A stretch of 32,000 nucleotides of DNA from an uncultured bacterium (GTDB taxonomy: Bacteria > Oederibacteriota > Oederibacteriia > Oederibacteriales > Oederibacteriaceae), in contig OZ218778.1 of assembly GCA_965112635.1 (NCBI GenBank), forward strand, positions 730,258 through 762,257. The letters are read 5' to 3'. The notes below the pieces were generated by a model. It was not told the origin of the DNA. It did no database searches and was given only the letters and a program-made list of their open reading frames with translations. This document shows positions 9,949 to 24,045 of the stretch, in pieces. The stretch's first letter is position 1; every line of letters starts with the position of its first letter. The translations under genes were made by a program, and so were the position numbers.

Positions 9949-10314
9949 TTATAACAGGTAGTGCAGCGCGCCGATTTCAGAAGTAAAAGACGGCAGGGTG
10001 GTTTCCAGGCTCAATAGTTGGTAAACGCGTTCGACATTGTGGGCCATGTTTATCAAAGCTATCCTGCCCCCGTTCCCGCTGACTTCTTTCCCAATATGCA
10101 CCAAAACATCCCAGCCGGCCCCGTCTATGAAGCTGATCCCCTTGAGGTCCACGATGATCCTGACAGAGGCCTGGCGGGCAAAGCTTAAGGCTGAGTATAT
10201 TAATTGGCATCCGGTATAGGCGTCGAGATATCCTTTGATGGTTATTTTCCAGCATTGGATGGTCTGGTAGGGGAGCTGCTCTATGGAAATATTGATTTCT
10301 TTTGTTGCATCCAT
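9949..10314 (-). CDS. STAS-domain protein (anti-sigma-factor-antagonist-like)
   Basis: A 121-aa ORF. ...VRIIVDLKGISFIDGAGWDVLVHIGKEVSGNGGRIALINMAHNVERVYQLLSLE... fits the SpoIIAA/STAS pattern. Confidence 0.85.
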   Translation of the reverse strand: MDATKEINISIEQLPYQTIQCWKITIKGYLDAYTGCQLIYSALSFARQASVRIIVDLKGISFIDGAGWDVLVHIGKEVSGNGGRIALINMAHNVERVYQLLSLETTLPSFTSEIGALHYLL

Positions 10315-10392
10315 TGGTTCACCCTTTTTCTATTTCGGGTACATGCACGCATGCAGGCTGGCTGGCAGCGCTCAACATCGTTGTTTGACATA

Positions 10393-10401
10393 ATTATACC
10401 A
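10393..10401 (-). promoter_or_regulatory. Candidate extended -10 promoter (TGGTATAAT on the minus strand) for the STAS gene
   Basis: The minus strand reads ...CCATGGTGGTATAATTATG..., which is TGnTATAAT, about 80 nt upstream of the ATG at 10314. Confidence 0.4.
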
Positions 10402-10553
10402 CCATGGCGGGAAACTGATTTTTCCATTCTGTCCTGTGCTTTTACTTCCTCCTATTGATCCTGTGGATCCGCCTTGTAGCTTTTCTCTTAGCCTTTTTTG
10501 TAGCTTTGCTCAGTGGCATAAATTCTCCCTCTTATTTGGCCTATTTTATTCCT

Positions 10554-10736
10554 CTATCTTGCCCCTCTTTGGGATGATCTTCCTGTCTGCCTTTTTTGCA
10601 CGGTGGATACATGGCTATGGATAGAAGGCAGGGCCGCATAAGAACTGTCATAAAAAGCATATTTTTCAGCTTTGTCTTTGTGATAGCCGGCGCGGATCGC
10701 AGCCCTTTCAATTTTTTCTGATTCTCTCTTTCCCAT
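10554..10736 (-). CDS. Small basic hypothetical protein (60 aa)
   Basis: An ATG at 10736 lies 3-4 nt after a strong SD (AAGGAGGG). The track ORF starts at an upstream TTG. No family was recognised. Confidence 0.35.
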   Translation of the reverse strand: MGKRESEKIERAAIRAGYHKDKAEKYAFYDSSYAALPSIHSHVSTVQKRQTGRSSQRGAR

Positions 10737-10865
10737 CTTCCCTCCTTTCAAGTTTGATACTCCCTATACTCTAACACTAATATGCTTTTTCATACTGATT
10801 ACTTGTCAGCAGGAAGCCCTGGACAAAATAGGTGTGATGAAATGGCTCGCCCCGGATAGGCGGGG

Positions 10866-10892
10866 GTTGAAGGATCTGAATGATCCTTCAAC
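10866..10892. other. Perfect 11-bp inverted repeat with a 5-nt loop (GTTGAAGGATC-TGAAT-GATCCTTCAAC)
   Basis: Read directly from the sequence. No U-tract follows on either strand. It lies in a ~250-nt non-coding gap. Confidence 0.6.
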
Positions 10893-10910
10893 GGGTCCCT
10901 TCCATAATTA

Positions 10911-10936
10911 AGTATGCAGAGGGACCCCGGAGATCA
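10911..10936. repeat. 26-nt repeat, copy 2 (AGTATGCAGAGGGACCCCGGAGATCA)
   Basis: It matches 9915..9940 at 22 of 26 positions. Confidence 0.5.
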
Positions 10937-10986
10937 ATAACATTACCCTAGGCTCTACTTCCCTTTTGCCGGAAACAATCACAGAC

Positions 10987-11001
10987 CCTTGTGGCACAAG
11001 G
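10987..11001 (-). terminator. Possible terminator hairpin after the small membrane-protein gene
   Basis: The minus strand reads CCTTGTGCCACAAGG, starting 5 nt after the stop codon. It is followed by the moderately U-rich GTCTGTGATTGTTTCC. Confidence 0.3.
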
Positions 11002-11006
11002 TTCGC

Positions 11007-11291
11007 CTACTTTGTATCTTGTCCCCTGCCCAGCCATCGACGGCATACATAAACAGCCGATATCCATGATCCAAAATCAGCTAGGAGCGCCCCCACCAAG
11101 ACCAGGCTGACCCAGTCACCCATAAATTTTGGGTAGGCGACCTGAACGCCCCCAATAATTAAAAAAGTGGCTATGATTGGGATGCCTGAATCCCTGTCTC
11201 CATATTTAATGTGGCGATATACCAGGCGAATATTCATGGGGATCAAGGCCAGGGCGCCTAAGAGAAAGATATTTCCGATAATGAACATCAT
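11007..11291 (-). CDS. Small integral membrane protein (about 3 TM segments)
   Basis: A 94-aa ORF with hydrophobic stretches FIIGNIFLLGALALIPM, IPIIATFLIIGGVQVAY and WVSLVLVGALLADFGSWISAVYV. It lies 22 nt downstream of the ArsR gene. Confidence 0.65.
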   Translation of the reverse strand: MMFIIGNIFLLGALALIPMNIRLVYRHIKYGDRDSGIPIIATFLIIGGVQVAYPKFMGDWVSLVLVGALLADFGSWISAVYVCRRWLGRGQDTK

Positions 11292-11313
11292 GGTTCATTC
11301 CCCCACGACAGGA

Positions 11314-11628
11314 TCATTCCTCAGTATCCTGGGTCTTGTGCTGGCTGGAAAGATGGATCAAACCTTTAAGCCCGTCAATAATTTCCAGGACTTCTTTTTG
11401 ATACTTTAACCGATACAGCACATACTGCCCCTTGCTTGTAAATCTGACTAGGTCAGCCATCCGCAGGCTCCGCAATTGATGCGAAACTGCGGGCATGGAT
11501 CGTCTGACCTTTTTAGCCAGCTCGGATGGCGCGCAGGGTTCCTTGGCTATGGCCTCCAGGATCTGAAAAGCCACAGGATTTCCCAGCACTTTGCATACTC
11601 TGGAACAACGGAATGAAGTCTCTTGCAT
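11314..11628 (-). CDS. ArsR/SmtB-family winged-helix transcriptional regulator (copy 1)
   Basis: The wHTH pattern is VLGNPVAFQILEAIAKEPCAPSELAKKVRRSMPAVSHQLRSLRMADLV. Start set to ATG 11628, behind SD GGAGAGGAG; the track start at 11643 is a GTG lying inside the SD region. Confidence 0.88.
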   Translation of the reverse strand: MQETSFRCSRVCKVLGNPVAFQILEAIAKEPCAPSELAKKVRRSMPAVSHQLRSLRMADLVRFTSKGQYVLYRLKYQKEVLEIIDGLKGLIHLSSQHKTQDTEE

Positions 11629-11674
11629 ATTTCTCCTCTCCACCGATCTAAATAATGGGGATCCACAAATACGG

Positions 11675-11711
11675 ATAATATCCTATTTTCGCATTTTCGC
11701 AATTGCGAAAA
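11675..11711 (-). promoter_or_regulatory. ArsR copy-1 promoter with an overlapping palindromic operator
   Basis: A perfect 18-bp palindrome, TTTTCGCAATTGCGAAAA, occupies 11694-11711. On the minus strand the -35 TTGCGA (11697-11702) lies inside the palindrome, followed by a 16-bp spacer and the -10 TATTAT (11675-11680). Confidence 0.55.
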
Positions 11712-11855
11712 CGTGGAAATGTCACATCTTGGGATTTAGATCAAGGACTTCAAAGCGCTACATGGGAATTAAAAAAACCCGCGGGGGAGGCGGGAGAATC
11801 CTATGCTTGCCTGGGGTCTAATTCCCTTTTGCAAGAAATAACTCCTGGCCCCGGT

Positions 11856-12299
11856 TCATTTCAGGTGAGAGCCATATCCTTCTAGGAGATCAGGAAACTC
11901 GGTAAGGAGAAATTCTTTGGCGTTCACTATCAGGGTTTTTCCCGTTTTTTTCAGCACCAGCAGGTCAAGGTCGCCCGTGACCAGATAATCAGCCCGGCTG
12001 GCTTTGGCCAGGTCCAGGACAAAAATATCCTTGGGATCTCTCAACTTTTGATGTATGCCTGGGCTTTTAATTTCAAAGGGAACAGTATAGGAAAGTATAT
12101 CTCCCAAAACCTTGTCCAATTCACTGTCTGAGAGCCCGAACTTCTTTCCCTGCAGAGTATGGGCCAGCTCTTTCAGTACCTCAGGAGAACAAACCAGCTC
12201 AATGAGCTCATGCCGGGCCAGTCCCAAAAACAGGCGGTTGACGCCCGGCCAGAAAGTGCCTGAAATGTAAACGTTGGTATCCGCAACCACTCTTACCAC
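11856..12299 (-). CDS. PIN-domain toxin (toxin-antitoxin system toxin component)
   Basis: A 147-aa ORF. It has the N-terminal VVADTNVYIS motif and the C-terminal ...ADYLVTGDLDLL... acidic motif typical of the PIN family. Its start lies 2 nt after the upstream antitoxin stop. Confidence 0.88.
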   Translation of the reverse strand: MVRVVADTNVYISGTFWPGVNRLFLGLARHELIELVCSPEVLKELAHTLQGKKFGLSDSELDKVLGDILSYTVPFEIKSPGIHQKLRDPKDIFVLDLAKASRADYLVTGDLDLLVLKKTGKTLIVNAKEFLLTEFPDLLEGYGSHLK

Positions 12300-12301
12300 T
12301 G

Positions 12302-12559
12302 CTACCGGCTCTCTTTGACCAGGCGGACAATGTCAGCTTCTTTTAAGTGAGCAAACCCTTTCTTTTTGGCCAGCGTTTCGGCCCATTGATAAAGATTCTT
12401 TGAACTTGGTTTGGAAACAACCCCTTTATTTTTTAGATAAAGCTCCAGGGATTCTTCAATAACCCCGCCGATGGTCTTATCTTCCTGCAGGGCTATCCTT
12501 TTGGTCATTTTTAGTAACTCCGGGTCCAGCCTCAGCGTGGTCTTCATGGATGTGATCAT
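12302..12559 (-). CDS. Putative antitoxin (ribbon-helix-helix-like), 85 aa
   Basis: Start trimmed to ATG 12559, behind SD AGAGGAGGG. The N-terminus MITSMKTTLRLDPELLKMTKRIALQEDKTIGGVIEESLELYL fits a beta-strand plus two-helix RHH layout. It is adjacent to the PIN gene. Confidence 0.7.
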   Translation of the reverse strand: MITSMKTTLRLDPELLKMTKRIALQEDKTIGGVIEESLELYLKNKGVVSKPSSKNLYQWAETLAKKKGFAHLKEADIVRLVKESR

Positions 12560-12579
12560 AGGTCCCTCCTCTCTTTGCT

Positions 12580-12612
12580 TGCCATATTGCCATATAGATG
12601 GCACGAAGTCAA
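12580..12612 (-). promoter_or_regulatory. Candidate TA-operon promoter and operator
   Basis: The minus strand reads TTGACT (12607-12612), 17 bp, then CAATAT (12584-12589). This overlaps a tandem ATATGGCA-ATATGGCA direct repeat and the near-palindrome GCCATCTATATGGC. Confidence 0.3.
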
Positions 12613-12661
12613 GTTGGAACAAGGTTTTCGTATAACATAATGTCCAGGTTGGTAAATTGCA

Positions 12662-12707
12662 AGGCGGGGATCGCTGAACCTTCATTTTTTGCATGTCGCA
12701 GGTCAAG
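12662..12707. repeat. 46-bp repeat, copy 1 (AGGCGGGGATCGCTGAACCTTCATTTTTTGCATGTCGCAGGTCAAG)
   Basis: It differs from 14400..14445 at 3 positions by hand alignment, in the same orientation. Confidence 0.75.
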
Positions 12708-12765
12708 CTCGTCCTAAAGCGTGCCCTGTAGGCACATGGACCTCCCCCGAAATAATGGGCACCTC

Positions 12766-13791
12766 TTACGGCCGGGTAACTTCTTGCACCATTTTTGGAA
12801 AAGCTCCCTGAACATTATTTAATTTAAATCTGGATATGCCTACTCTTTCAATGCCTGTTTCCCATCCGTCCCTGGCGTTATACCATATCCAAAGTTCATT
12901 CCCAACTTTTCTCATATCTAGCTGGTAGACCAAGGCGTCTTTCCAGCCTTTTTCCGGGGCTATGATCGGGTTAAAAGGCAGGTTGTACCACTCCATACCG
13001 TCTTTGGATAAAAGGAAATGAATGGCTGAACGGGAACTGCCTTCTTTGTCTTTATAAATGCCGTTGTTGAATCCCAAAAATATATTTTCTGTCCATTCAT
13101 AGTAAACCTTCAGGCCTCCGGCCCCCATATTTCTGTACGGATCATCCGGGTTTGGTCCTATGACGGGAAGAGGGTGTTTTTTATAAGGTCCCATGATGTT
13201 ATTGGAAAACGCAACGCCGTTATAAACCGGTTCCTCATAACCGCAGTCAGGAAGCAGGACTTCCCCGGAAGCATAGTACAACCTGTATCCTTCCGGGGTC
13301 TTTGTTATACAGGCGTTTCTGACCACTGGTCTTGACCTGAAGCTTTCTTTTTCCCAGGGAAGGCCGGGTCTTAATATGACCTCATCCTTTGTCCAGTTTT
13401 TCAGGTCTTTTGAGGATCTTACCGCTATGCAGCATTCACCTTCAATAAACCAGGGTCCGTGGTGGAACATATAAAAAGTGCCTTTGTCCTTGAAAACGAA
13501 CGGGTTCCATCCGGGTTTGAATCTGTCTAAAGCTTTCCAGTTTATACCGTCATTAGAAACCATATGGTTAATATAAGTATCCCCGCTTACCGCGTATAAA
13601 TGCCATTTCCCGTCCGGACTGGTTTCAGGCATGATAATGGTAGGTTCTCCGACAACCTGTGTGTTAAAGGGAGGATTGATAATGGGGTTTCCTGGATGAT
13701 CGGCCCATTTATCCCACTGAACCTTTTTTAGAAGCTCGGGTGAAAATACTTCTTCCGGGTTACTTTGGATTAAGCCGTTCTTGTTCTTCAT
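12766..13791 (-). CDS. Beta-propeller glycoside-hydrolase-like protein (GH43/GH130-type fold; family not resolved)
   Basis: A 341-aa ORF with SD AAGAGGAGGG. It has repeated SxDGxxW-type blade motifs (SNDGINW, SSKDLKNW, SKDGMEW) and W/Y-rich strands (FYMFHHGPW, YRLYYASG, LWIWYNARDGW). Confidence 0.75.
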   Translation of the reverse strand: MKNKNGLIQSNPEEVFSPELLKKVQWDKWADHPGNPIINPPFNTQVVGEPTIIMPETSPDGKWHLYAVSGDTYINHMVSNDGINWKALDRFKPGWNPFVFKDKGTFYMFHHGPWFIEGECCIAVRSSKDLKNWTKDEVILRPGLPWEKESFRSRPVVRNACITKTPEGYRLYYASGEVLLPDCGYEEPVYNGVAFSNNIMGPYKKHPLPVIGPNPDDPYRNMGAGGLKVYYEWTENIFLGFNNGIYKDKEGSSRSAIHFLLSKDGMEWYNLPFNPIIAPEKGWKDALVYQLDMRKVGNELWIWYNARDGWETGIERVGISRFKLNNVQGAFPKMVQEVTRP

Positions 13792-13806
13792 AGACCCTCC
13801 TCTTTA

Positions 13807-13861
13807 CGAAAACCCCGCCCCCGCCCTCAAGGTGCGCGTCCATGAGGACGTTAAGGCGGGG
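13807..13861 (-). terminator. Possible intrinsic terminator or attenuator between ArsR copy 2 and the glycosidase-like gene
   Basis: The minus strand reads CCCCGCC...(inner hairpin CGTCC-TCAT-GGACG)...GGCGGGG followed by TTTT. The loop is long, so this is only a candidate. Confidence 0.35.
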
Positions 13862-13865
13862 AAGT

Positions 13866-14180
13866 TTATTCCTCAGTATCCTGGGTCTTGTGCTGGCTGG
13901 TCAGATGAACCAAACCCTCCAGCCCGTCTATGATCTCCAGAATTTCCTTGGGGTATTTAATCCTGTAAAGAACATATTTATTTTTTGTCGTATATCGAAC
14001 TAAATCTGCCAAACGCAAGCCTTTCAACTGATGTGAAATGGCCGATATGGTTCTTTTGAACCTTTTGCTCAACTCAGATGGGGTGCACGGTTCCTTAGCA
14101 ATAGCCTCAAGAATTTGAAAAGTCAAAGGATTGCCCAATACCCGGCATAGCCTGGAACAACGATATGCTGTTTCTTTCAT
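13866..14180 (-). CDS. ArsR/SmtB-family winged-helix transcriptional regulator (copy 2)
   Basis: The wHTH pattern is VLGNPLTFQILEAIAKEPCTPSELSKRFKRTISAISHQLKGLRLADLV. It is about 72% identical to copy 1 (75/104 by hand count). Start set to ATG 14180, behind GGAGAGGAG. Confidence 0.88.
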   Translation of the reverse strand: MKETAYRCSRLCRVLGNPLTFQILEAIAKEPCTPSELSKRFKRTISAISHQLKGLRLADLVRYTTKNKYVLYRIKYPKEILEIIDGLEGLVHLTSQHKTQDTEE

Positions 14181-14229
14181 ATTTTCTCCTCTCCACACAA
14201 GCCATAAGATACAAACCCCACAATCCCTT

Positions 14230-14277
14230 ATTCTACCTCATTTGCACGTTTGTTCAATTGAGCAAATGTGCAAATGA
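14230..14277 (-). promoter_or_regulatory. ArsR copy-2 promoter with an overlapping palindromic operator
   Basis: A 40-bp imperfect palindrome, TCATTTGCACGTTTGTTCAATTGAGCAAATGTGCAAATGA, occupies 14238-14277 (15 of 17 arm positions pair). On the minus strand the -35 TTGAAC (14252-14257) sits at the palindrome centre, followed by a 16-bp spacer and the -10 TAGAAT (14230-14235). Confidence 0.55.
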
Positions 14278-14399
14278 CCAATCTGGGGATTTAGAATCTA
14301 AAGCATTTGATGTTTAGGATGGTGGGGCGAATGGTTTAAAAACCCGCCGGGGGAAAAATTGAGGAAAGAGGGCCTGAAAATTTTGAAAAGGGGTCGGGG

Positions 14400-14445
14400 A
14401 GGCGGGGATCACTGAACCTTCAATTTCTGCATGTCGCAGGTCAAG
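14400..14445. repeat. 46-bp repeat, copy 2 (AGGCGGGGATCACTGAACCTTCAATTTCTGCATGTCGCAGGTCAAG)
   Basis: It differs from 12662..12707 at 3 positions. Confidence 0.75.
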
Positions 14446-14623
14446 GTTTGCCCCGAATAATATTCGTTTTTTACAACCATTTTGAATTAAGACTTGAAAA
14501 TAGCACAATCTTAGTCCATACTACATACAGGCTTGAGTAGTAATCTGAGATGTCAACCCCAGAGTTGACCATCGATACCAGGATTACCAACTTGAGCCTT
14601 TTTTATTGATGACCCCTTTGGTT

Positions 14624-15412
14624 CTATTCCCTATCCTTCCTAACCTGCATAACATAGTGAATATTGAACTTTTTGAAAACATCGGTTTTCTCAATTCCAT
14701 CCGTTGTCCAGGTGTCCGGTAAAAAATTTGTTACGCCAAGTTTTGAGATTAAATATTCTCTTATTTTATTTTTGTAAAGCGACCCCTTCTTTTTTCCTTC
14801 CATAGGTTCTATTGGAAACAGATTATTTAAAATACAGCCCTGAAGCAAATCACAAACCCCCATTAATTCATACCCTTCAGCGCCAGATACAACATCTTGA
14901 ATATGGCGAATCTTAGGAAGTTTTGAATCCAGCGAGTAACCGGCCTCTATAGTGCTGAAATTACGCTTCAATACCTCCATAAAGGTTATCGGTTCACAGC
15001 GTGTCATTTTATCCAAAAAAAGGATCGCATTCGACATATGATCAAGATTTCTTTTAAGCAGTTCATCGGCCAGTGACCGATAGGCTCGTTCTCGTTTTAT
15101 CTTCGCTGGTTCATCTGGACGACCGTATATCTCCAGATCAAAGCTATTGTCTGTTTTTATAGCAATGCAACTAAAATGACTGTCGCTCAGCATGAAAGCA
15201 TCGATCGCTTCCTTATAAACCCTGAACGCTTTGGAATAATTACAGCGAGTATATTTAATTTCCTTGAAACTGCCATCAGGTAGAACATATGCATTGCGGG
15301 CCAATACTCCCTTTATTTGTTTGTGAAATTTATGATGCGTGGGATTAAACAAAGCCCCAAGAAGGAGCCACGTATGATTATGATCGTATGTTTCGTCTAA
15401 ATATATAATCAT
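14624..15412 (-). CDS. DUF3800-like protein
   Basis: A 262-aa ORF. The N-terminal MIIYLDETYD resembles the DUF3800 hallmark (hydrophobic-YxDES/T at the extreme N-terminus). The gene is AT-rich like the upstream operon. Confidence 0.75.
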   Translation of the reverse strand: MIIYLDETYDHNHTWLLLGALFNPTHHKFHKQIKGVLARNAYVLPDGSFKEIKYTRCNYSKAFRVYKEAIDAFMLSDSHFSCIAIKTDNSFDLEIYGRPDEPAKIKRERAYRSLADELLKRNLDHMSNAILFLDKMTRCEPITFMEVLKRNFSTIEAGYSLDSKLPKIRHIQDVVSGAEGYELMGVCDLLQGCILNNLFPIEPMEGKKKGSLYKNKIREYLISKLGVTNFLPDTWTTDGIEKTDVFKKFNIHYVMQVRKDRE

Positions 15413-15540
15413 TATTTATTTTTTCTCCTCTATTTATTTCTTTTTTCACCTTCATCCTGAGCCGGTTCATCCTTCTCCCCAAACGCGGGAGAGGGTGGAT
15501 TGGATTTTTTATTGAATAGTAATAACCATAACTTATTAGT

Positions 15541-17517
15541 TTATATTATTGCAAAACCAACATCTTTTAAATATTCAAAAGTCGGATCATAATAGTCTCG
15601 CTTACGCGTTTTATCCTCTGTGTCTCCCTGCGGTACTACCATCACCATACCTTGCCGAGCACGGGTTAACAAAACACGATATGCATTTTTCAAATAGTTT
15701 TGCCTTTCTTTCTTTTTAATATGATTCCAGCTCTCACCGCAAAAGGACCAATGCTCCCAACCTTTTTTTGAATATCTAAAATCAGCATCCCAGGCTACAC
15801 ATGACCAATCAAGCTCAAGCCCCTGGACTGCGAATTCAGTCGCAACATCTTCTAAATAATATGACGAGCGCACATCCTCCTTGCCATCAAGAAACCAATG
15901 AATCGGATCCATAGGAGTTTTCACATCTAGAGCATGAGGTTTTAACCGCTCAGCTTGAGAAGAAACCACAATGCCATATCGTTCTGAACCGCGGGCTTGG
16001 CTTCTTAACCATTTCTTTGCTTTAGTAAGATCCCGAGTAAGGACTATCGGATATTTTTCTTTTACATTGGCCAATGTTTTTCGTGCTTCATCAACATTAA
16101 GGTCTAATAGTTGCTTCACAAATAGCGAAACATTCTCCGCACGGAACGAACGCATAGAGACACCTAGATGTAATTCATTTTTGTAGGTAACATTTTCTCT
16201 AAGTTCAATTTTTTTCAAAACCTCACCAGCACCATATTCGCTATCTGTGAGCCGCGAGGAAATATAAATATCCCAATTGGGATATAAATGATTTAATGAT
16301 TCTATCCATTCGCTAATCCCAGCCTCGCCGGTGTTTATTTCCTGCCCTCCCCCCACAAGGCAAACAACAACGGCCCAATCCGTATGGCGATCTAAACAAG
16401 AAATTAAAAAATCCGGTTCCGATCGATTAAAATTAGCTACATGCTTTCTGCGGGTCATAAAATTGGTGGTTTGTTCCCTATTCCAAGCTCGTTGGGCCTC
16501 ATCAAACAATGCAACGTGTTCAATTGGTGGTTTTTTTGAATCAATCAGACATTCATCACGAAAATTATGAACATTCTGGATAAACATCTTAACCCCAGAC
16601 ATAACTTCGCCTTTTTTTACTTTGATCCCTTGCTCTTTCTCATGACGCACTTTATCTCTTGCAAGGGCCTCGCGTAGCACAGCAACAAGAGGCCCATTGC
16701 CAGATAAAAATACACTGTAAAGGTCATTCGATTTATCTATGTGCTGAGTAGCAATATTTAGACCAACCAAAGTTTTACCCGCACCAGGCACACCAGTGAC
16801 GAAACAGATAGATTTGCGCGAATTTTGTTTAGATAAACTAATGATTTTTGAAATAGCATCAGAGGTTTGACTCAGATTGATAGCGCTGGCATCCCTTCGA
16901 GAAATATCATGTACTGAATGGCCGTTATAAAGGGCCATAGCTGCCTCAATAATAGTCGGGGTGGGACAATAGCGTCCTTGTTCCCACTGACTTTGATTAA
17001 TGGCAATACCTTCTGTAAAGAGCAATACATTCTTTATCACTTGGCCAAGCAATGCCACAGTGCTTCTAATAGGAAAAAGAAGTTTGTCATTCTGCGGTGT
17101 CATTGCCACAACAGGAACGGCATGGTGAGCATTGGTAGCTACAAGGACTGGAGCAACAAATTGCTCATGACTCGATTCGTGGAAGTTTTTAAGGTCCAGA
17201 GCATAGTCACAGACCTGATCTAAAGCACCAGAATTAAATTCCTTTTCACCAATTTTAAATTCAAGCACAAAAATCGTAGAGCCTATTAGCAGCACCACAT
17301 CAATTCGCTTGCCCATACGAGGTATTGAATATTCAAAATAAATCGATCCCTGATTACCAATAAGGGCGTTTTGCAGAATATTGATTTCTTCTAACCATGC
17401 ATCACGTTGGCTTTGGACCAAATCAAAATCATTATTGCGTGCAAGTTGACCTAGAATTTCATCAGGATTTGTTTTAAGGAAAATAGCTATTGAACTAGAA
17501 TAATATTCTCGTTTCAT
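15541..17517 (-). CDS. DUF2075-type protein: N-terminal PD-(D/E)xK-like nuclease motif plus an SF1-like P-loop ATPase
   Basis: A 658-aa ORF. The nuclease-like motif is [30 protein letters not shown] (E...D...ExK). Walker A is [14 protein letters not shown] and Walker B is [12 protein letters not shown]. The C-terminal [16 protein letters not shown] is typical of DUF2075. Confidence 0.88.
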
Positions 17518-17545
17518 AGATTCCTTTTTATATCATCGTCAGGGT

Positions 17546-18502
17546 TTACCTTTTAAATCTTTCACTTGAATGCCATTCCAAAAGCTCTTTGTTTGGGCGG
17601 TAATTTTCTTGAACTGGAAGTCTAATCTTCTTGTGATCATAGGAAAAATAATACTCCCCGTTATGAAACTCTTCTCTAAGTTTATTACTAACTCTAATCT
17701 CGTAATCCGGAGTGACTGTGACATATCCCTGGTCAAAGAGAGAATGAAAATCCGAACGTAGACAGAGTCCATTATCAAGCCTATGATCTCCCTCTCTAGC
17801 AACTGGTCGGATATGGGCTGCTTCCAGGACAGGTACTACCTTTTCTGCTGTCATGGCGCATTTTCTATCATATAAATCTAAGATCATGACTCTGAAGGTT
17901 CCTTGTCCCAATCGCATTTTTACTAATCGGGGATCGCCATAAATTTTACCTGTAATCTCATGTATTTCTGGTTGTTTAATATCTATCGTCTCTGCTGCTA
18001 TGAGTTGTTTTTTATTATTAAGAGAACCTTTTATTCTCATCCAAATCTCCCGCATCGGAGAACTCTCTGAATCATACGTCTTGCCCTGTACAATATTTAA
18101 AGAAAAATCCTTAGGAACCGGAATCCAGTCTTTTTGTTCGAGATAAAATAGATCTCCTAAAATAATACATCCTATTGAGTAATCCTCCCTAGGATTTTCA
18201 TTAACTCTGCGGTATTTAGCTAATCGGTGTCTCATATCTTCTAGAGTAGCTACTCCGTTTTTTTCCTCAAATGCATTCCAGGCGATACTGATTGGTAACA
18301 ATGAGGAATGACGAAAAAAACCTCCCCCTACGATAAAATTATTAGGGGCATGAAGTTTAAAAAGAAAGGGTTCCCCAACTTGGAGAGTATGAAATTGCCT
18401 GTTTCCACCCGGTTGCCAAAAATTTACCTCGTCAATGTCTTGGCGTTGGCTAAGAAAATCAAACCAATCTTTATCAGTGATCCCAACATAAATATTCAAC
18501 AT
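17546..18502 (-). CDS. HNH endonuclease (HNH_2 type) with an N-terminal PUA/EVE-like domain; type IV restriction-like
   Basis: A 318-aa ORF. The C-terminal RLGQGTFRVMILDLYDRKCAMTAEKVVPVLEAAHIRPVAREGDHRLDNGLCLRSDFHSLFDQGYVTV is the HNH_2 signature. The N-terminal portion (WFDFLS...VNFWQPGG...GEPFLFKLHAPNNFIVGGGFF) is the conserved partner domain of this family. Confidence 0.9.
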   Translation of the reverse strand: MLNIYVGITDKDWFDFLSQRQDIDEVNFWQPGGNRQFHTLQVGEPFLFKLHAPNNFIVGGGFFRHSSLLPISIAWNAFEEKNGVATLEDMRHRLAKYRRVNENPREDYSIGCIILGDLFYLEQKDWIPVPKDFSLNIVQGKTYDSESSPMREIWMRIKGSLNNKKQLIAAETIDIKQPEIHEITGKIYGDPRLVKMRLGQGTFRVMILDLYDRKCAMTAEKVVPVLEAAHIRPVAREGDHRLDNGLCLRSDFHSLFDQGYVTVTPDYEIRVSNKLREEFHNGEYYFSYDHKKIRLPVQENYRPNKELLEWHSSERFKR

Positions 18503-18532
18503 CCACTCCCATATTTATCAACTTAAAACTAG

Positions 18533-20914
18533 CTATAAAATTGCAATGAATTCGCCCAGAATCTGGATGTCGTTTTCATTCTCGGGTTTGAGTTTTATAG
18601 GTTGATACTGCACATTTAATGGTAAAAGTGTTATTTCTTCGTGCTTCCAAGTCTCATCACTGCTGACAGTCTTTTTCGATGAATATAATTTAACTGTATA
18701 TGACCCGCCTGTGTCAGGGTCTGCCGGGCCGCGATACTGGGCTAAAACTATTTTACCCTGCCGCGAACCCTCTGGGTTGGCTCTGAAAACGCAATAGTCC
18801 CCATCCTTTATCTTCGGCTCCATGGACCTGCCTACCACCTGCGCCACGAACATTCTTTCATTCAACCTCCCCAAGCCCTTTGCCTCTACCCAGCCCTCAG
18901 GCTCGACTGCTTCGCCTTTCCCAAAATATCCGGCAGCCGCCTTAAGGGAATAAACAGGAAGTAAGGTTTTGAAAGCCTCATTCCCCGCTGTTTTCCTGAA
19001 TAAGGGAACAACCTTTTCCTGGACCTGCGCCTGGGATATTTCCATCCGGGACCTGAAGAAATTCTCTGTTTCTTTGTTAGTAAAATACACATAGCAACCC
19101 CGCATAGCTCGTGAAAGCAGGGTTCGATAAATATTCCTGACATAGGTTTCAAAACTTTCTTTTTTCATCTTCAATGTTCGGTCTTCAGTGGCCGAGATAT
19201 CCGCTTTTAAACTGTCCGATGGGGCATCGTAAACCAGGTCATTGCCGATAATTACCCCTATATAATCGAACTCAAATCCCTGGGCCGTATAGATGCATCC
19301 GACCTGCTTAAACCCTTCGGGCTTATACGCCCACTCATACCAGCGCACATATCCCTCTGGGGGCCTGGTGATGTCACCATGTGTTTCCCAGGGCATAGCA
19401 AAATTGCCTATCCTGACATCGTTTACCAGTTGGCCGTTCCCATCCAATTTCTTACTCCAAGGCCAACAATAACCGGCTACGATCCTGGCAGAATTCGGTT
19501 TTTCTTCTTCCCTCTTTTGCAACTCCTTATACATTTCCTGTGGAGTATCAAATATCCTGAATTCAAATTTGTCATCTTTCCTTAATAATCTTTTCTCGGA
19601 CTGGTAACCCAGAACAGATTCCAACCAAAGCAGATAATCATTTGAACCCATGCAACGGAACTGTGTCACTAATTCAACCGTATCAATAGAACACCCCTGT
19701 TTTTCGGCGGTTTCCCTGATCAATTCAGACCCGCCTATTTCCTGGGACCGGACATTTTGCTTATCATCTATAAAAAACACGACGGTTTTGGCGCAACGAA
19801 TGAGTTGGTCTATCTGGGGCATATCGGTCCTGTCCTCGGCCTTAGTGAATTGGAAGTTACTTTTATTGCCTATGCGGTGGGCTTCGTCGATCAATAACAG
19901 ATCCAGCTCGTTCGACTTTATTTTGGAAGGGACAAACCGGTATAAATTAGAAAAAAGGATTTCGCTTTCCGGTCCAACAAGGTTTTTTATGCCCTCAATG
20001 AAAGGTTTTGACTTACAGCCATAAAATACTTTGTATTTGGAATGAGCTGCCTCAGCCAGTAAATTGATAGCGATAAGAGATTTTCCTGTCCCCGGGCCCC
20101 CATGAACAATGATGACCGATTTTGTTTTAGTTTTTTTCGACCGTCTTATTTTGGAAAGAATAAGATTTTTCGCTACCAATTGCTCATTTAAAAGGGAGAA
20201 AACAGCCTTGTTTTGTATAACTGCGCTGACATGGTCCAGTAATTTTTGAGAGGGCTGGATTGGGCTTTGCATAAACCTGTTGAATATTTCAAAACCATTA
20301 CCGGATGCCAGCAAATTCTTTATCTTATCAGCCAGTAATTGGGCATCGTCTTTTGAATAAAGGGGATGGTTTTCGATAATTTTTTTAAATTTGGGGGCGA
20401 ATAAACCCTCCCCCTCCTGTTTTTTATAATTATGGCAATAAGAACAGCTGAAAAGTATAAGGGGAGGTTGCTTTTCGAACTCGCTGACAAAATATTTTAA
20501 AAAATTATGGTAGCCCTCGACCTGTTGGGATGGATGGGCCACTACTTTGCTGCTGCCGCCTGTATAGGTCTCGACAAAATTGCCCTCATCATTTAATGGC
20601 TCAACAGATTGCCATTGTTTCAATTCAATCAGGACAATATTTTCCTGCCTATCAAGACCTTTCCCGAACAACAGGCAATCAATGCGGTTCTGGTTATAGG
20701 GAACCTCATACTCAATGGCTATCTGATTATCTTTTAAACCAGCCAACTCGATCAGGTCACGGACCCTGGGTAGTGAATTTTGCCAGGAATTGACCTCCGC
20801 GAATCCAGGCTGCCTGCCGATCCTCTCCTTAAAAGTTCCGATCATGATGTCTGTAAGATGGTTTTCCCTGACATCCTGGATAAACTTTTCGGTCGTATTC
20901 TGATAGATCAGCAT
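18533..20914 (-). CDS. DUF2075-type nuclease/ATPase fused to a C-terminal LexA-like S24 peptidase domain
   Basis: A 793-aa ORF. The N-terminal nuclease-like motif is IEYEVPYNQNRIDCLLFG...IVLIELKQW. Walker A is VIIVHGGPGTGKSLIA and Walker B is LLLIDEAHRI. DUF2075-type motifs are AGYCWPWS, CIYTAQGFEFDYIGVIIGNDL and YRTLLSRAMRGCYVYF. The C-terminus has LKAAAGYFG (an Ala-Gly bond) followed by VVGRSMEPKIKDGDYCVF...GKIVLAQ...YTVKLY (S24 Ser/Lys dyad). Confidence 0.9.
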   Translation of the reverse strand: MLIYQNTTEKFIQDVRENHLTDIMIGTFKERIGRQPGFAEVNSWQNSLPRVRDLIELAGLKDNQIAIEYEVPYNQNRIDCLLFGKGLDRQENIVLIELKQWQSVEPLNDEGNFVETYTGGSSKVVAHPSQQVEGYHNFLKYFVSEFEKQPPLILFSCSYCHNYKKQEGEGLFAPKFKKIIENHPLYSKDDAQLLADKIKNLLASGNGFEIFNRFMQSPIQPSQKLLDHVSAVIQNKAVFSLLNEQLVAKNLILSKIRRSKKTKTKSVIIVHGGPGTGKSLIAINLLAEAAHSKYKVFYGCKSKPFIEGIKNLVGPESEILFSNLYRFVPSKIKSNELDLLLIDEAHRIGNKSNFQFTKAEDRTDMPQIDQLIRCAKTVVFFIDDKQNVRSQEIGGSELIRETAEKQGCSIDTVELVTQFRCMGSNDYLLWLESVLGYQSEKRLLRKDDKFEFRIFDTPQEMYKELQKREEEKPNSARIVAGYCWPWSKKLDGNGQLVNDVRIGNFAMPWETHGDITRPPEGYVRWYEWAYKPEGFKQVGCIYTAQGFEFDYIGVIIGNDLVYDAPSDSLKADISATEDRTLKMKKESFETYVRNIYRTLLSRAMRGCYVYFTNKETENFFRSRMEISQAQVQEKVVPLFRKTAGNEAFKTLLPVYSLKAAAGYFGKGEAVEPEGWVEAKGLGRLNERMFVAQVVGRSMEPKIKDGDYCVFRANPEGSRQGKIVLAQYRGPADPDTGGSYTVKLYSSKKTVSSDETWKHEEITLLPLNVQYQPIKLKPENENDIQILGEFIAIL

Positions 20915-20923
20915 TAAAGGCCC

Positions 20924-21286
20924 CTAAAGATCGGTATATTTTTTAGCGCTACCTTTGGCGAGTTTGACCGGATACTTGCGGGCGTTTTTCTTGATCTTGT
21001 CATGGGCACAGCGGATGGGGTCAACGCCCAGCATATCGCAAAGTTCCGTGAGATAGACCAATACATCGCCTATCTCATCTTTGACTTTTTTGAGGTCGGC
21101 TTTAGAAAGGTTTTTGCTTTGGTTCTCGGTCAGCCATTGAAAATGCTCCATAAGTTCTGAGGTCTCTACTGCAAGCGCCATAGAAAGGTTTTTAGGTGAA
21201 TGGTACTGTTCCCAATCACGGTCTTTTACAAATTTCTTTAATTTTCTGGAAATTTTTCTTAACCCACCTTGATTTCCCATTTTCAA
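20924..21286 (-). CDS. MazG-like nucleoside triphosphate pyrophosphohydrolase (DCTPP1/YpjD-like all-alpha NTP-PPase)
   Basis: A ~118-120-aa ORF. It has DWEQYHSPKNLSMALAVETSELMEHFQW (an ExxExxE metal site), DEIGDVLVYLTELCDMLGVD (ExxD), and KIKKNARKYP. The track start at 21286 is TTG, directly abutting the upstream stop. An ATG at 21280 with GGAG 9 nt upstream is an alternative. Confidence 0.88.
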   Translation of the reverse strand: MKMGNQGGLRKISRKLKKFVKDRDWEQYHSPKNLSMALAVETSELMEHFQWLTENQSKNLSKADLKKVKDEIGDVLVYLTELCDMLGVDPIRCAHDKIKKNARKYPVKLAKGSAKKYTDL

Positions 21287-21874
21287 CTACTCCACCCTAA
21301 ATATTTTAAGAAAATGTGACCTTGGTAACTCTGACTCATAGGACAGCCCGATATTGCACTTATCAAAATAACCGTCGCCCTCAGTCCATATTTTAAATGT
21401 CTTGGGATATTTACTCAGATATTTCTTTGTTATACGAAGACCTCTGCCACCAACCTTTAGTCTAAATAGATCATGTCTATTTTTTGGATTATTAAAATAA
21501 TTTCTCATATATGCATCTGTAAGATAAATGAGAAATTTATTTTCAGCTGTAAAATTTAGCAATTTTGAAATATCCCAAAATATTTGGCCCGCACCTTCGG
21601 TATAACCCGAATCTCCACCCCTGTGATATTTGAATTCAATAGCTACATTGTTATTTTTGTCATTCGAACATGCGTAAAAGTCCAGTTTATCTTTTTTGAA
21701 CAATTTATTTTTGAATGGATGTTCTAGGATAATATTCTCAGGTTTGTATTTTTCTTTTTTGGTAAGCGCGTAAAAAAAAGTGTAACGAATTGAATCTTCC
21801 GAATCATTAAAATCCCTGTCTTTCTCCAACCTTTTCTTAATTAATTCTGTAAAGTAACTAAATACTGGGAGCAT
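21287..21874 (-). CDS. Hypothetical protein with a PD-(D/E)xK-like nuclease motif
   Basis: A 195-aa ORF with SD AGGAGG 5 nt before the ATG. ...ILEHPFKNKLFKKDKLDFYACSNDKNNNVAIEFKYH... gives an E...D...ExK arrangement in a beta-strand context. No family was recognised. Confidence 0.7.
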   Translation of the reverse strand: MLPVFSYFTELIKKRLEKDRDFNDSEDSIRYTFFYALTKKEKYKPENIILEHPFKNKLFKKDKLDFYACSNDKNNNVAIEFKYHRGGDSGYTEGAGQIFWDISKLLNFTAENKFLIYLTDAYMRNYFNNPKNRHDLFRLKVGGRGLRITKKYLSKYPKTFKIWTEGDGYFDKCNIGLSYESELPRSHFLKIFRVE

Positions 21875-21914
21875 TACTTCCTCCTAAACAAACTCGTTTG
21901 ATAGCAATAATTTG

Positions 21915-21943
21915 ATTCTATCCCCCCCATCCCCTCTAATCAA
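21915..21943 (-). promoter_or_regulatory. Candidate sigma70-type promoter of the AT-rich operon
   Basis: The minus strand has -35 TTGATT (21938-21943), a 17-bp spacer and -10 TAGAAT (21915-21920), about 40 nt upstream of the ATG at 21874. Confidence 0.5.
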
Positions 21944-22896: not shown

Positions 22897-24045
22897 TTAC
22901 CGCATTATCTTTCCCGACCAAAGTTCTTCCAGAAAAATATTCCAGGGCAGTATCCGGATGTTTCCCATCTTACGGGGTTTCGCGTCCCGTGATACCAGCA
23001 GCGCCTCTTTGACGCGGTATTCTTCCTGGAATGCTCTGAGCCCCCTGGCGTGGCGGTCGTCGGCGGTTTGGGCCGCTTTAACTTCCACCACCACTTCATG
23101 GTCCCCCAGGATAAAATCCACCTCCAGCTGTGAGGCGGTCCGCCAAAAGCACACCGGGTAATCCAAGCCGCTGTAACGGCTATGGGCCCAGATTTCCTGG
23201 AAAAGGAAGTGCTCAAAGGCCTTGCCAAAGGACTCGCCCCCCTCGGAGACTTTCCCGCGTTTCAAAAGATGGCCGGCCACCCCGACATCAAAAAAGTAGA
23301 ACTTGGGCGCCTGGATGACCCTGCGTTTGGGATTTTTCCTAAAGGAGGATATCTGGGTCGCCACCAGGGTATCCTCCAGGATCTGGAAATATTCCTTTAC
23401 CGTCGGCGGGCTGATGCCGCATTCCGTGGCGATATTTTGGTAGTTGAGGATCTCCCCATTGCTGAAGGCCGCGGCTTCCAGAAAACGGGCGAAGGCGGGG
23501 ATGTTGCGGGCCAAAGCCTCGGCGGCGATCTCTTCTTTTAGATAGTCCCCCAGGTAAGCAGCCATAAGTTTTTCGGCATCCTCGACCAGGTAATGCCGCG
23601 GCAGGAGGCCGTGGTTCAAGGCTCTGGTAAGGTCAAACCCGGGTATTTCCGCGCTGACCAGGGGGTGCAGCTCGTACCTCAAGGCCCGGCCTCCCAGCAG
23701 GTTGGCCCCGGAACGTTTCAGTTTCCGGGCGCTGGAGCCGCACAGGATAAAGGAGAGATGGTGGTTGACGATCAGCCATTGGATCTCATCCAGCAAAGCC
23801 GGGCACTTTTGGACTTCATCAATGATAATGGGGGTCCCGGGAGCCGGAAGCGCGGCCAGGATCTCCTCCCTCAAAAGAGCGGGATGCCGCGACAACCGGG
23901 CGTATTCGTCTGACAGGAGGAGATCGTAGTAGGGCGCTTGGGGGAAAAACTCCTTTAACAGCGTACTTTTCCCGGTCTGCCTGGCGCCCCAAAGAAAGGC
24001 GCTTTCGTTTTTTCGTCCCTGGAAGGTCTGCAGTCGTTTAAACAT
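22897..24045 (-). CDS. AAA+ ATPase with a DUF4143 domain (AAA_14/DUF4143 family)
   Basis: A 382-aa ORF. Walker A is WGARQTGKSTLL and Walker B is PIIIDEVQKCPALLDEIQ. It also has ILCGSSARKLKRSGANLLGGRA and a C-terminal PD-(D/E)xK-like EVDFILGDHEVVVEVK. Confidence 0.9.
   Translation of the reverse strand: MFKRLQTFQGRKNESAFLWGARQTGKSTLLKEFFPQAPYYDLLLSDEYARLSRHPALLREEILAALPAPGTPIIIDEVQKCPALLDEIQWLIVNHHLSFILCGSSARKLKRSGANLLGGRALRYELHPLVSAEIPGFDLTRALNHGLLPRHYLVEDAEKLMAAYLGDYLKEEIAAEALARNIPAFARFLEAAAFSNGEILNYQNIATECGISPPTVKEYFQILEDTLVATQISSFRKNPKRRVIQAPKFYFFDVGVAGHLLKRGKVSEGGESFGKAFEHFLFQEIWAHSRYSGLDYPVCFWRTASQLEVDFILGDHEVVVEVKAAQTADDRHARGLRAFQEEYRVKEALLVSRDAKPRKMGNIRILPWNIFLEELWSGKIMR

Follow-up and report, generated by a model that had tools for sequence, protein, structure and literature searches.

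The stretch of DNA considered here, 32,000 nucleotides long and referred to below as the window, comes from an uncultured bacterium of the family Oederibacteriaceae (GenBank assembly GCA_965112635.1, contig OZ218778.1, positions 730,258 to 762,257 of the forward strand). It carries a block of six genes, lettered A to F in the order of their transcription, all of which lie on the minus strand (Table 1). Genes B and C, the main subject of this work, encode a predicted MazG-like nucleotide pyrophosphohydrolase and a putative nuclease-helicase that ends in a LexA-like module. They are followed by D, which encodes a predicted modification-dependent nuclease, and E, a second putative nuclease-helicase. 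An initial annotation, made from the sequence alone, had taken the block for one unnamed defence system of five or six genes. The defence-type reading is well supported, but the claim of a single system fails in part.

The six open reading frames (ORFs) lie where that annotation had placed them, and the gaps that it gave, 9 nt between B and C, 30 nt between C and D, 28 nt between D and E and 128 nt between E and F, are all correct. The 0-nt junction reported for A and B holds if B starts at its TTG codon, but not with the likelier ATG at 21280, which leaves a gap of 6 nt. This ATG is preceded by a ribosome-binding site (RBS), GGTGGAG, that can be read directly in the sequence, and the gene call on a Logan contig of identical sequence (L001) has the same start, which gives a protein of 118 residues. 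The ATG is probably the true start of B, rather than the TTG at 21286. The promoter proposed upstream of A is present, but sites of this kind are no more common than chance would give (22 matches in the region, against 18.9 +/- 4.1 expected from shuffles), and the site is a weak indication only.

The block is AT-rich, as had been noted, with a GC content of 36-44% against 53-60% in the flanks, which include the housekeeping genes for SerRS, SurE and RtcB. It is a low-GC insertion between these genes, probably acquired horizontally. In a search for the boundaries of a mobile element, no tRNA, Rfam match, integrase or transposase was found, nor any convincing flanking direct repeats. Directly upstream of the block is a gene for a membrane methyltransferase of the ICMT family. 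A scan of window ORFs turned up no other methyltransferase and none of the DNA type, and in this sense the earlier statement that the locus has no methyltransferase stands.

Table 1. Features of the six-gene block, in window coordinates.
Feature	Position	Strand	Description
Gene A	21287-21874	-	ORF, 195 aa
Gene B	20924-21286 (TTG start)	-	ORF, 120 aa; 118 aa from ATG at 21280
Gene C	18533-20914	-	ORF, 793 aa
C, putative nuclease domain, residues 1-230	20225-20914	-	E68/E70, D79, E97-x-K99, SCxYCHNY; invariant columns in 18 homologues
C, helicase core, residues 265-612	19079-20122	-	Walker A GGPGTGKS (272-279), Walker B DEAH (343-346); invariant
C, S24 module, residues 651-793	18533-18964	-	Peptidase_S24; Ser697 (GRSMEP), Lys742, putative cleavage A661-G662 (AAAG)
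Gene D	17546-18502	-	ORF, 318 aa
Gene E	15541-17517	-	ORF, 658 aa
Gene F	14624-15412	-	ORF, 262 aa
Promoter-like site TTGATT-17-TAGAAT	21915-21943	-	upstream of A; consensus scan and direct reading

The protein encoded by C is made up of three parts. Its N-terminal domain has no Pfam match and aligns with that of gene E and of PDC-S41, a candidate single-gene defence system in PADLOC. This domain is followed by a helicase core of the SLFN-g3/DUF2075 family (PF09848, 8e-84) and by a C-terminal Peptidase_S24 module (1e-10). Within each of the families of A (D65, E80 and K82), C and E, the D...ExK signature is invariant, and E, like C, is an SLFN-g3/DUF2075 helicase (1e-84), in agreement with the three nuclease-like motifs and the two superfamily 1 (SF1)-like P-loop ATPases that the initial annotation had picked out. 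The matches of C to the defence models of PADLOC 2.0, the release used for all such comparisons here, are partial: 71.7 bits to PDC-S41 (residues 3-291), 44.7 bits to Nhi and 41.1 bits to AbiO. When C and E are compared by hhalign, they align with a probability of 93.6% over 509 columns at 23% identity. By these comparisons, the two proteins are paralogues that share the N-terminal domain and the helicase, and C belongs to a family distinct from PDC-S41, from which it also differs in having a MazG partner. Sequence searches of the solved structures with C, with E or with the single sequence of the S24 tail of C gave nothing useful.

A profile of the C-terminal tail of C matches the C-terminal domain of LexA (1.7e-5) and UmuD (6e-4). 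The S697 and K742 dyad is invariant among the 18 homologues, and the putative cleavage site, AAAG at residues 659-662, corresponds to (A/C)-G in 16 of them and to A-T in the other two. S697 aligns with the region of the catalytic serine motif of LexA, and K742 with a position that is alanine in the matched LexA chain and that we take to be K156. The self-cleaving module of LexA type that had been proposed is thus borne out by the Pfam match, the dyad and the site. The tail shares with LexA, UmuD and lambda CI the Ser-Lys dyad, the G-x-S-M-E-P motif and the upstream Ala/Cys-Gly site, but its N-terminal partner is a 650-residue nuclease-helicase, and not a helix-turn-helix (HTH) repressor or a polymerase subunit.

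The S24 module is found in 48 of 120 close homologues of C. On a tree of the nuclease-helicase core of these 120 sequences, it is scattered in a way that requires at least 15 gains or losses by parsimony. Since the proteins that lack S24 are as similar to C (65-72% identity) as those that carry it (57-72%) and are scattered on the tree, S24 is a modular add-on. The enzyme to which it is added appears from these comparisons to function without it, which is the pattern expected of a regulatory switch.

Gene B matches the Pfam family MazG-like (PF12643) with an E-value of 5e-16. Its closest matches in the Protein Data Bank are 4qgp (1.2e-20) and the structures of dCTP pyrophosphatase 1 (DCTPP1), 6sqw and, under the name RS21-C6, 2a3q (1.5e-20). 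The homology with DCTPP1 spans the whole length of B, with an alignment that runs to its C-terminal KYTDL, and the catalytic residues are kept. The ExxE...ExxD metal ligands (E41, E44, E71 and D74) are invariant in all 59 of 59 partner genes. By homology, B is predicted to be an all-alpha, MazG-like nucleoside triphosphate (NTP) pyrophosphohydrolase related to DCTPP1, and the earlier call of a MazG-type enzyme holds. DCTPP1 has a preference for 5-modified dCTPs. No PADLOC model matches B at E <= 0.01. The parallel that had been drawn with defences that deplete deoxynucleotides (dNTPs), such as the dCTP deaminases and dGTPases, is only conceptual, in that B could act on the nucleotide pool as they do: there is no homology, and none of the six proteins matches the PADLOC depletion models. 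Moreover, B differs from these defences in being a small protein of 118-120 residues without a sensor domain that is always found as a partner gene.

The conservation of the block was assessed in two sets of loci, one of 80 genome loci anchored on homologues of C and one of 80 metagenome loci anchored on homologues of E. Both sets, 160 loci in all, were searched with the six proteins of the window, and every neighbouring ORF was clustered. Adjacency of MazG was scored in the 71 C loci that had sufficient upstream sequence. A MazG gene adjoins the C homologue in 60 of these, irrespective of the S24 module (20/23 with S24 and 40/48 without). The distance from the stop of MazG to the start of C lies between -4 and +11 nt in 46 of 56 loci, which indicates that B and C are translationally coupled. 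The C loci are found among the bacteria in Bacteroidota, delta-proteobacterial metagenome-assembled genomes, Planctomycetota, Omnitrophota, Nitrospira, Patescibacteria and Bacillota, and among the archaea in Woesearchaeota, Aenigmatarchaeota, Nanoarchaeota and Methanosarcinales, with identities to C of 40-69% across these taxa. Such a spread, at such identities, is typical of horizontally mobile genes. B-C is the only strongly conserved unit of the block. The synteny of all genes that a single system would imply is not seen: E is mostly solitary, D belongs to a stand-alone family, and no syntenic homologue of A or F was found.

A protein of about 650 residues (X647), with N-terminal tetratricopeptide repeats (TPR) and a C-terminal HExxH motif (HELEH or HEMEH), is encoded directly upstream of MazG-C in 12 of the 80 C loci (L003, L006, L012, L038, L050, L059, L060, L071, L077, L078, L080 and L081). 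It has no meaningful PADLOC match. This protein could be a third, optional component of MazG-C. The idea that X647 is an alternative to S24 was rejected, as it occurs with S24-bearing and S24-less forms of C alike.

A search for C or E relatives among IMG/VR viral contigs found none, and phage GenBank records yielded four weak matches for relatives of C. A phage origin was therefore rejected. Two tandem DUF2075 genes with 33-37% identity to C are found on a mobilizable plasmid of Hymenobacter canadensis (NZ_CP114769.1, 21061-25047; locus L171), where their neighbours include a gene for a DNA methyltransferase, one for a DUF4747 protein and fragments of transposase genes. No MazG gene is present at this locus.

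Gene E matches the PADLOC model for PDC-S41 over almost its entire length (7e-287, 951 bits, residues 1-656 against 1-651 of 657). Walker A and B motifs are present, and D73, E86-x-K88 and GVPGAGKT are invariant in its family. The matches to Nhi (18.2 bits) and AbiO (23.3 bits) are weak. By sequence, E is a full-length member of this candidate single-gene system, and one gene of the block thus already belongs to a named candidate. No paper that names PDC-S41 was found in the literature. In the E-anchored loci, E is overwhelmingly alone (about 90%) among variable neighbours, which is consistent with the single-gene model in PADLOC.

Gene D encodes a nuclease domain of the HNH_2 type (1.7e-10) at about residues 192-277, which matches the EVE-HNH enzyme VcaM4I (6yex, 3e-7) at equivalent positions and the PADLOC HNH model PDLC04132 (6.5e-25). 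H230, N244 and H253 are invariant in its family. The N-terminal 165 residues have no Pfam match at the sequence level. AlphaFold2 models this domain mostly at predicted local distance difference test (pLDDT) values of 70-90, and with lower values, of 60-65, for residues 21-40. Foldseek places ASCH domains first (probability 1.0, target TM 0.53-0.62) and EVE, YTH and McrB-N lower, so that the HNH_2 nuclease with a PUA-like reader of the initial annotation is supported in both its parts. PUA-HNH fusions are modification-dependent endonucleases for DNA that contains 5-methylcytosine or 5-hydroxymethylcytosine, or N6-methyladenine (PMC6765204). On the strength of its sequence matches and modelled fold, D has the predicted architecture of a type IV restriction enzyme, with a PUA-superfamily reader at residues ~1-165 followed by the HNH_2 domain. 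It resembles the PUA-HNH restriction endonucleases of the VcaM4I/TspA15I and ScoA3IV groups in this order of domains and in lacking a nearby DNA methyltransferase, but differs from them in that its reader has no Pfam match and folds best on ASCH rather than on EVE or SRA domains. The family of D is large, with more than 7,900 clusters of stand-alone proteins of about 306-311 residues. A further parallel that had been suggested, with the PtuA/PtuB proteins of Septu, is conceptual only, as none of the six proteins matches a PADLOC Ptu model. Taken as a whole, nearly all of the earlier domain calls are confirmed.

The two outermost genes of the block are probably unrelated passengers. No homologue of A or F is found in the 160 related loci. 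A gives a match to HSDR_N_2 of 22.1 bits, which is below the cut-off. Its family comprises 256 representative clusters in which E26, D27 and R30 are invariant together with the D...ExK residues. The AlphaFold2 model has a pLDDT of 91.5, and its fold matches are weak, with PD-(D/E)xK nucleases at the top (Cas4 SSO0001, MGME1 and HincII) mixed with unrelated folds; longer fusion relatives of A have only DUFs attached. A is a member of a small uncharacterised PD-(D/E)xK-like family and is not conserved alongside the other genes. F lies 128 nt from E, as the initial annotation had it, and has its own RBS, but its assignment to DUF3800 is indirect: there is no Pfam match in F itself, even at E <= 10, while two distant members (40-41% identity) among its 31 homologues carry DUF3800 (PF12686). 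It also matches phrog_3732 (6e-7). The homologues of F occur singly, adjoining toxin-antitoxin or type I restriction-modification (R-M) genes. F is probably an independent gene for a divergent DUF3800-related protein.

The GC content of the window is already lowered to 45-48% from about 10 kb onwards. The region from 10000 to 14600 encodes a small STAS-domain gene, a GH43-like gene and ArsR and PIN genes, and the AT-rich island may be a patchwork of several acquisitions that reaches past the coordinates of the block. Two paralogous genes of the ArsR HTH type, at 11314-11643 and 13866-14198 on the minus strand, are 72% identical over 300 nt. Their upstream regions are also repeated (11767-11794 plus 12662-12707, against 14379-14445), and a PIN_3 toxin/antitoxin pair (11856-12706) lies between the two halves of the repeat at the first ArsR copy, as if it had been inserted there after a segmental duplication. 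On the other side, just beyond the low-GC block, a DUF4143/AAA_14 ATPase gene (22897-24045, minus strand) lies next to RtcB in sequence of 58% GC.

The closest known counterparts of C and E are Nhi of S. epidermidis (SERP2475), the Nhi-like proteins (Millman et al. 2022) and the lactococcal AbiO, which are single polypeptides that block the accumulation of phage DNA. Nhi is a dimer with nuclease and helicase activities, and phages can escape it by way of their single-stranded DNA-binding protein. AbiO has the same domain plan as Nhi and is toxic at high copy number. C and E share with these proteins the plan of an N-terminal PD-(D/E)xK domain followed by a DUF2075/SLFN-g3 helicase of the SF1B type. 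However, there is no full-length match to the Nhi and AbiO hidden Markov models (HMMs), which cover about 160 residues around the P-loop of C and E. C also adds a coupled MazG partner and, in about a third of its clade, the S24 module, neither of which is described in the accounts of Nhi and AbiO consulted here. The helicase family PF09848 is also common to C and to human SLFN11 and the other group-3 Schlafens, but C has a PD-(D/E)xK domain in place of their N-terminal tRNA nuclease domain. According to Lutz et al., the human group-3 Schlafens block DNA replication and bring about the death of cells whose DNA is extensively damaged or whose replication is defective. A functional analogy between Schlafens and C, with S24 as a switch that would sense single-stranded DNA (ssDNA) and RecA, is speculation. 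Literature searches returned no paper that combines MazG with DUF2075, Nhi or Schlafen and none on a DUF2075-S24 fusion, and no model in PADLOC 2.0 matched the MazG partner or the LexA-like S24 fusion. E is already known as a PADLOC candidate and D adds a new member to the PUA-HNH enzymes of type IV, while the MazG-C pair of a dCTP-pyrophosphatase-like enzyme and a nuclease-helicase is apparently undescribed.

On balance, we lean towards reading the block as a horizontally acquired, composite defence island of separable modules that target nucleic acids, with B-C as its core, and hold this reading with modest confidence. The defence-type reading follows from the low-GC insertion, the Nhi/AbiO-like architecture of C and E, the membership of E in PDC-S41 and the PUA-HNH architecture of D.

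From the established gene structure, domains, catalytic residues and synteny statistics, we infer an anti-phage role, a cleavage triggered by RecA, a substrate for B and possibly some cooperation among the modules, along the following lines. By analogy with Nhi, C would most likely use its nuclease and helicase to unwind and degrade the replication intermediates of phages. Its S24 domain would keep it inactive or dimeric until RecA-ssDNA filaments, arising from phage replication or DNA damage, promote self-cleavage at A661-G662. The cleavage would release an enzyme of about 660 residues equivalent to the natural S24-less homologues (626 residues). B would hydrolyse dCTP or 5-modified dCTPs and could thereby starve phage DNA synthesis or withhold modified cytosines. 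D would add the cutting of cytosine- or adenine-modified DNA, and E a second, independent nuclease-helicase that normally works alone.

Several observations weigh against such a composite island. E follows C in 10-12 of the 80 C loci, and full-length homologues of D adjoin C or E in six of the 160 loci (L067, L079, L090, L092, L122 and L147). The metagenome contig L090 even repeats the order B-C-D-E, at identities of 54% for C, 43% for D and 76% for E. These recurrent neighbours of B-C may mean that the modules cooperate rather than merely co-reside. The close spacing, with gaps of 6-30 nt, and the presence of only one promoter-like site upstream are compatible with A to E being transcribed together, as they would be in a single system. 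Nucleotide sanitation and the SOS response, both housekeeping functions, also typically involve enzymes like DCTPP1 and domains like that of LexA, respectively. Distant plasmid-borne relatives of C (34-37% identity) lack MazG, and either have R-M and DUF4747 genes nearby or form tandem pairs of DUF2075 genes. The matches of C and E to the Nhi and AbiO HMMs are weak and partial, and PDC-S41 itself is only a candidate, so that the roles proposed for these exact families draw on comparison with relatives.

The housekeeping functions just mentioned raise the possibility that B-C is a maintenance module for DNA damage or replication stress, in which an SOS-regulated nuclease-helicase works with a sanitiser of the nucleotide pool and has come to lie among defence genes by chance. 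S24 domains are a hallmark of SOS regulators and UmuD, DCTPP1 is a well-established house-cleaning enzyme, nuclease-helicases of the SF1B type, DNA2 for example, take part in repair, and the rarity of C relatives in viral contigs and phage records fits as well. However, a patchy distribution across domains at 55-70% identity indicates frequent horizontal transfer, and the gene lies in a low-GC island. Its neighbours are repeatedly of the defence type (PDC-S41, PUA-HNH, Fic, and the R-M and DUF4747 genes on the Hymenobacter plasmid), and the encoded protein is built like Nhi and AbiO, whose role in defence has been validated by experiment. A maintenance role is thus considered unlikely.

Another possibility is that B and C form a toxin/antitoxin-like abortive-infection pair, in which C damages its own cell and is held in check by B. 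B would do so by binding to C or by removing a nucleotide needed to activate it, and would not serve as a second effector on the dNTP pool. B is small, lacks a sensor domain and is translationally coupled to C from immediately upstream, where antitoxins classically lie, and AbiO, with an architecture like that of C, is toxic at high copy number. In addition, a PUA-HNH gene, a MazG gene and a PDC-S41 gene follow one another in L092 (3117-6652), where there is no homologue of C. This order shows that the MazG partner can pair with the other nuclease-helicase paralogue, here E. Against such a pair stand the invariant metal ligands of B, which place its enzymatic activity under selection, and the frequent occurrence of C or E without MazG (it is missing from 11 of 71 C loci and from most of the E loci), which indicates that the nuclease-helicase is tolerated without B. 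This explanation also seems improbable.

The least likely explanation is that the five or six genes together make up a single obligate system of several components that acts as one machine, since the shared orientation and close spacing behind one promoter-like site, the recurrence of B-C-D-E in the unrelated contig L090 and the loci in which D adjoins C or E are offset by the lack of syntenic homologues of A and F, the solitary occurrence of E and its single-gene PADLOC model, the huge stand-alone family of D and the presence of B-C without D or E in most loci. It is also in favour of a joint system that Lutz et al. describe modification-dependent nucleases that adjoin DUF2075 NTPases, in their case McaZI, of the DUF3427 type, and propose that such pairs be tested jointly.

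Returning to the composite island with B-C as its core, a bolder form of this reading can be put forward, although it must be called doubtful. MazG-C would be a widespread, cross-domain immune module in which C is armed by LexA-like self-cleavage on RecA-ssDNA and the DCTPP1-like enzyme destroys dCTP or 5-modified dCTPs, and the PUA-HNH and PDC-S41 neighbours would make up a layered defence against phages with modified cytosines. If this were true, the cleavage on RecA-ssDNA would report phage replication or DNA damage directly at the protein level, much as human group-3 Schlafens respond to damaged DNA and defective replication, and would provide a mechanistic tie between the bacterial DUF2075 proteins and these eukaryotic proteins.

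Of all the findings here, the MazG-C pair and its LexA-like switch most deserve follow-up. Proteins of the Nhi/AbiO type are validated single-gene defences, but little is understood of how they are activated or discriminate between self and non-self. A clade with repeated gains of S24 and a coupled dCTP-pyrophosphatase-like partner leads to a testable hypothesis for both, namely that RecA-ssDNA is the trigger and that discrimination, or a second line of attack, works via the cytosine nucleotide pool. MazG and the nuclease-helicase together make a candidate system of two genes that PADLOC 2.0 does not include. It ranges from Bacteroidota to DPANN archaea, and its annotation would fill gaps in the maps of defence islands.

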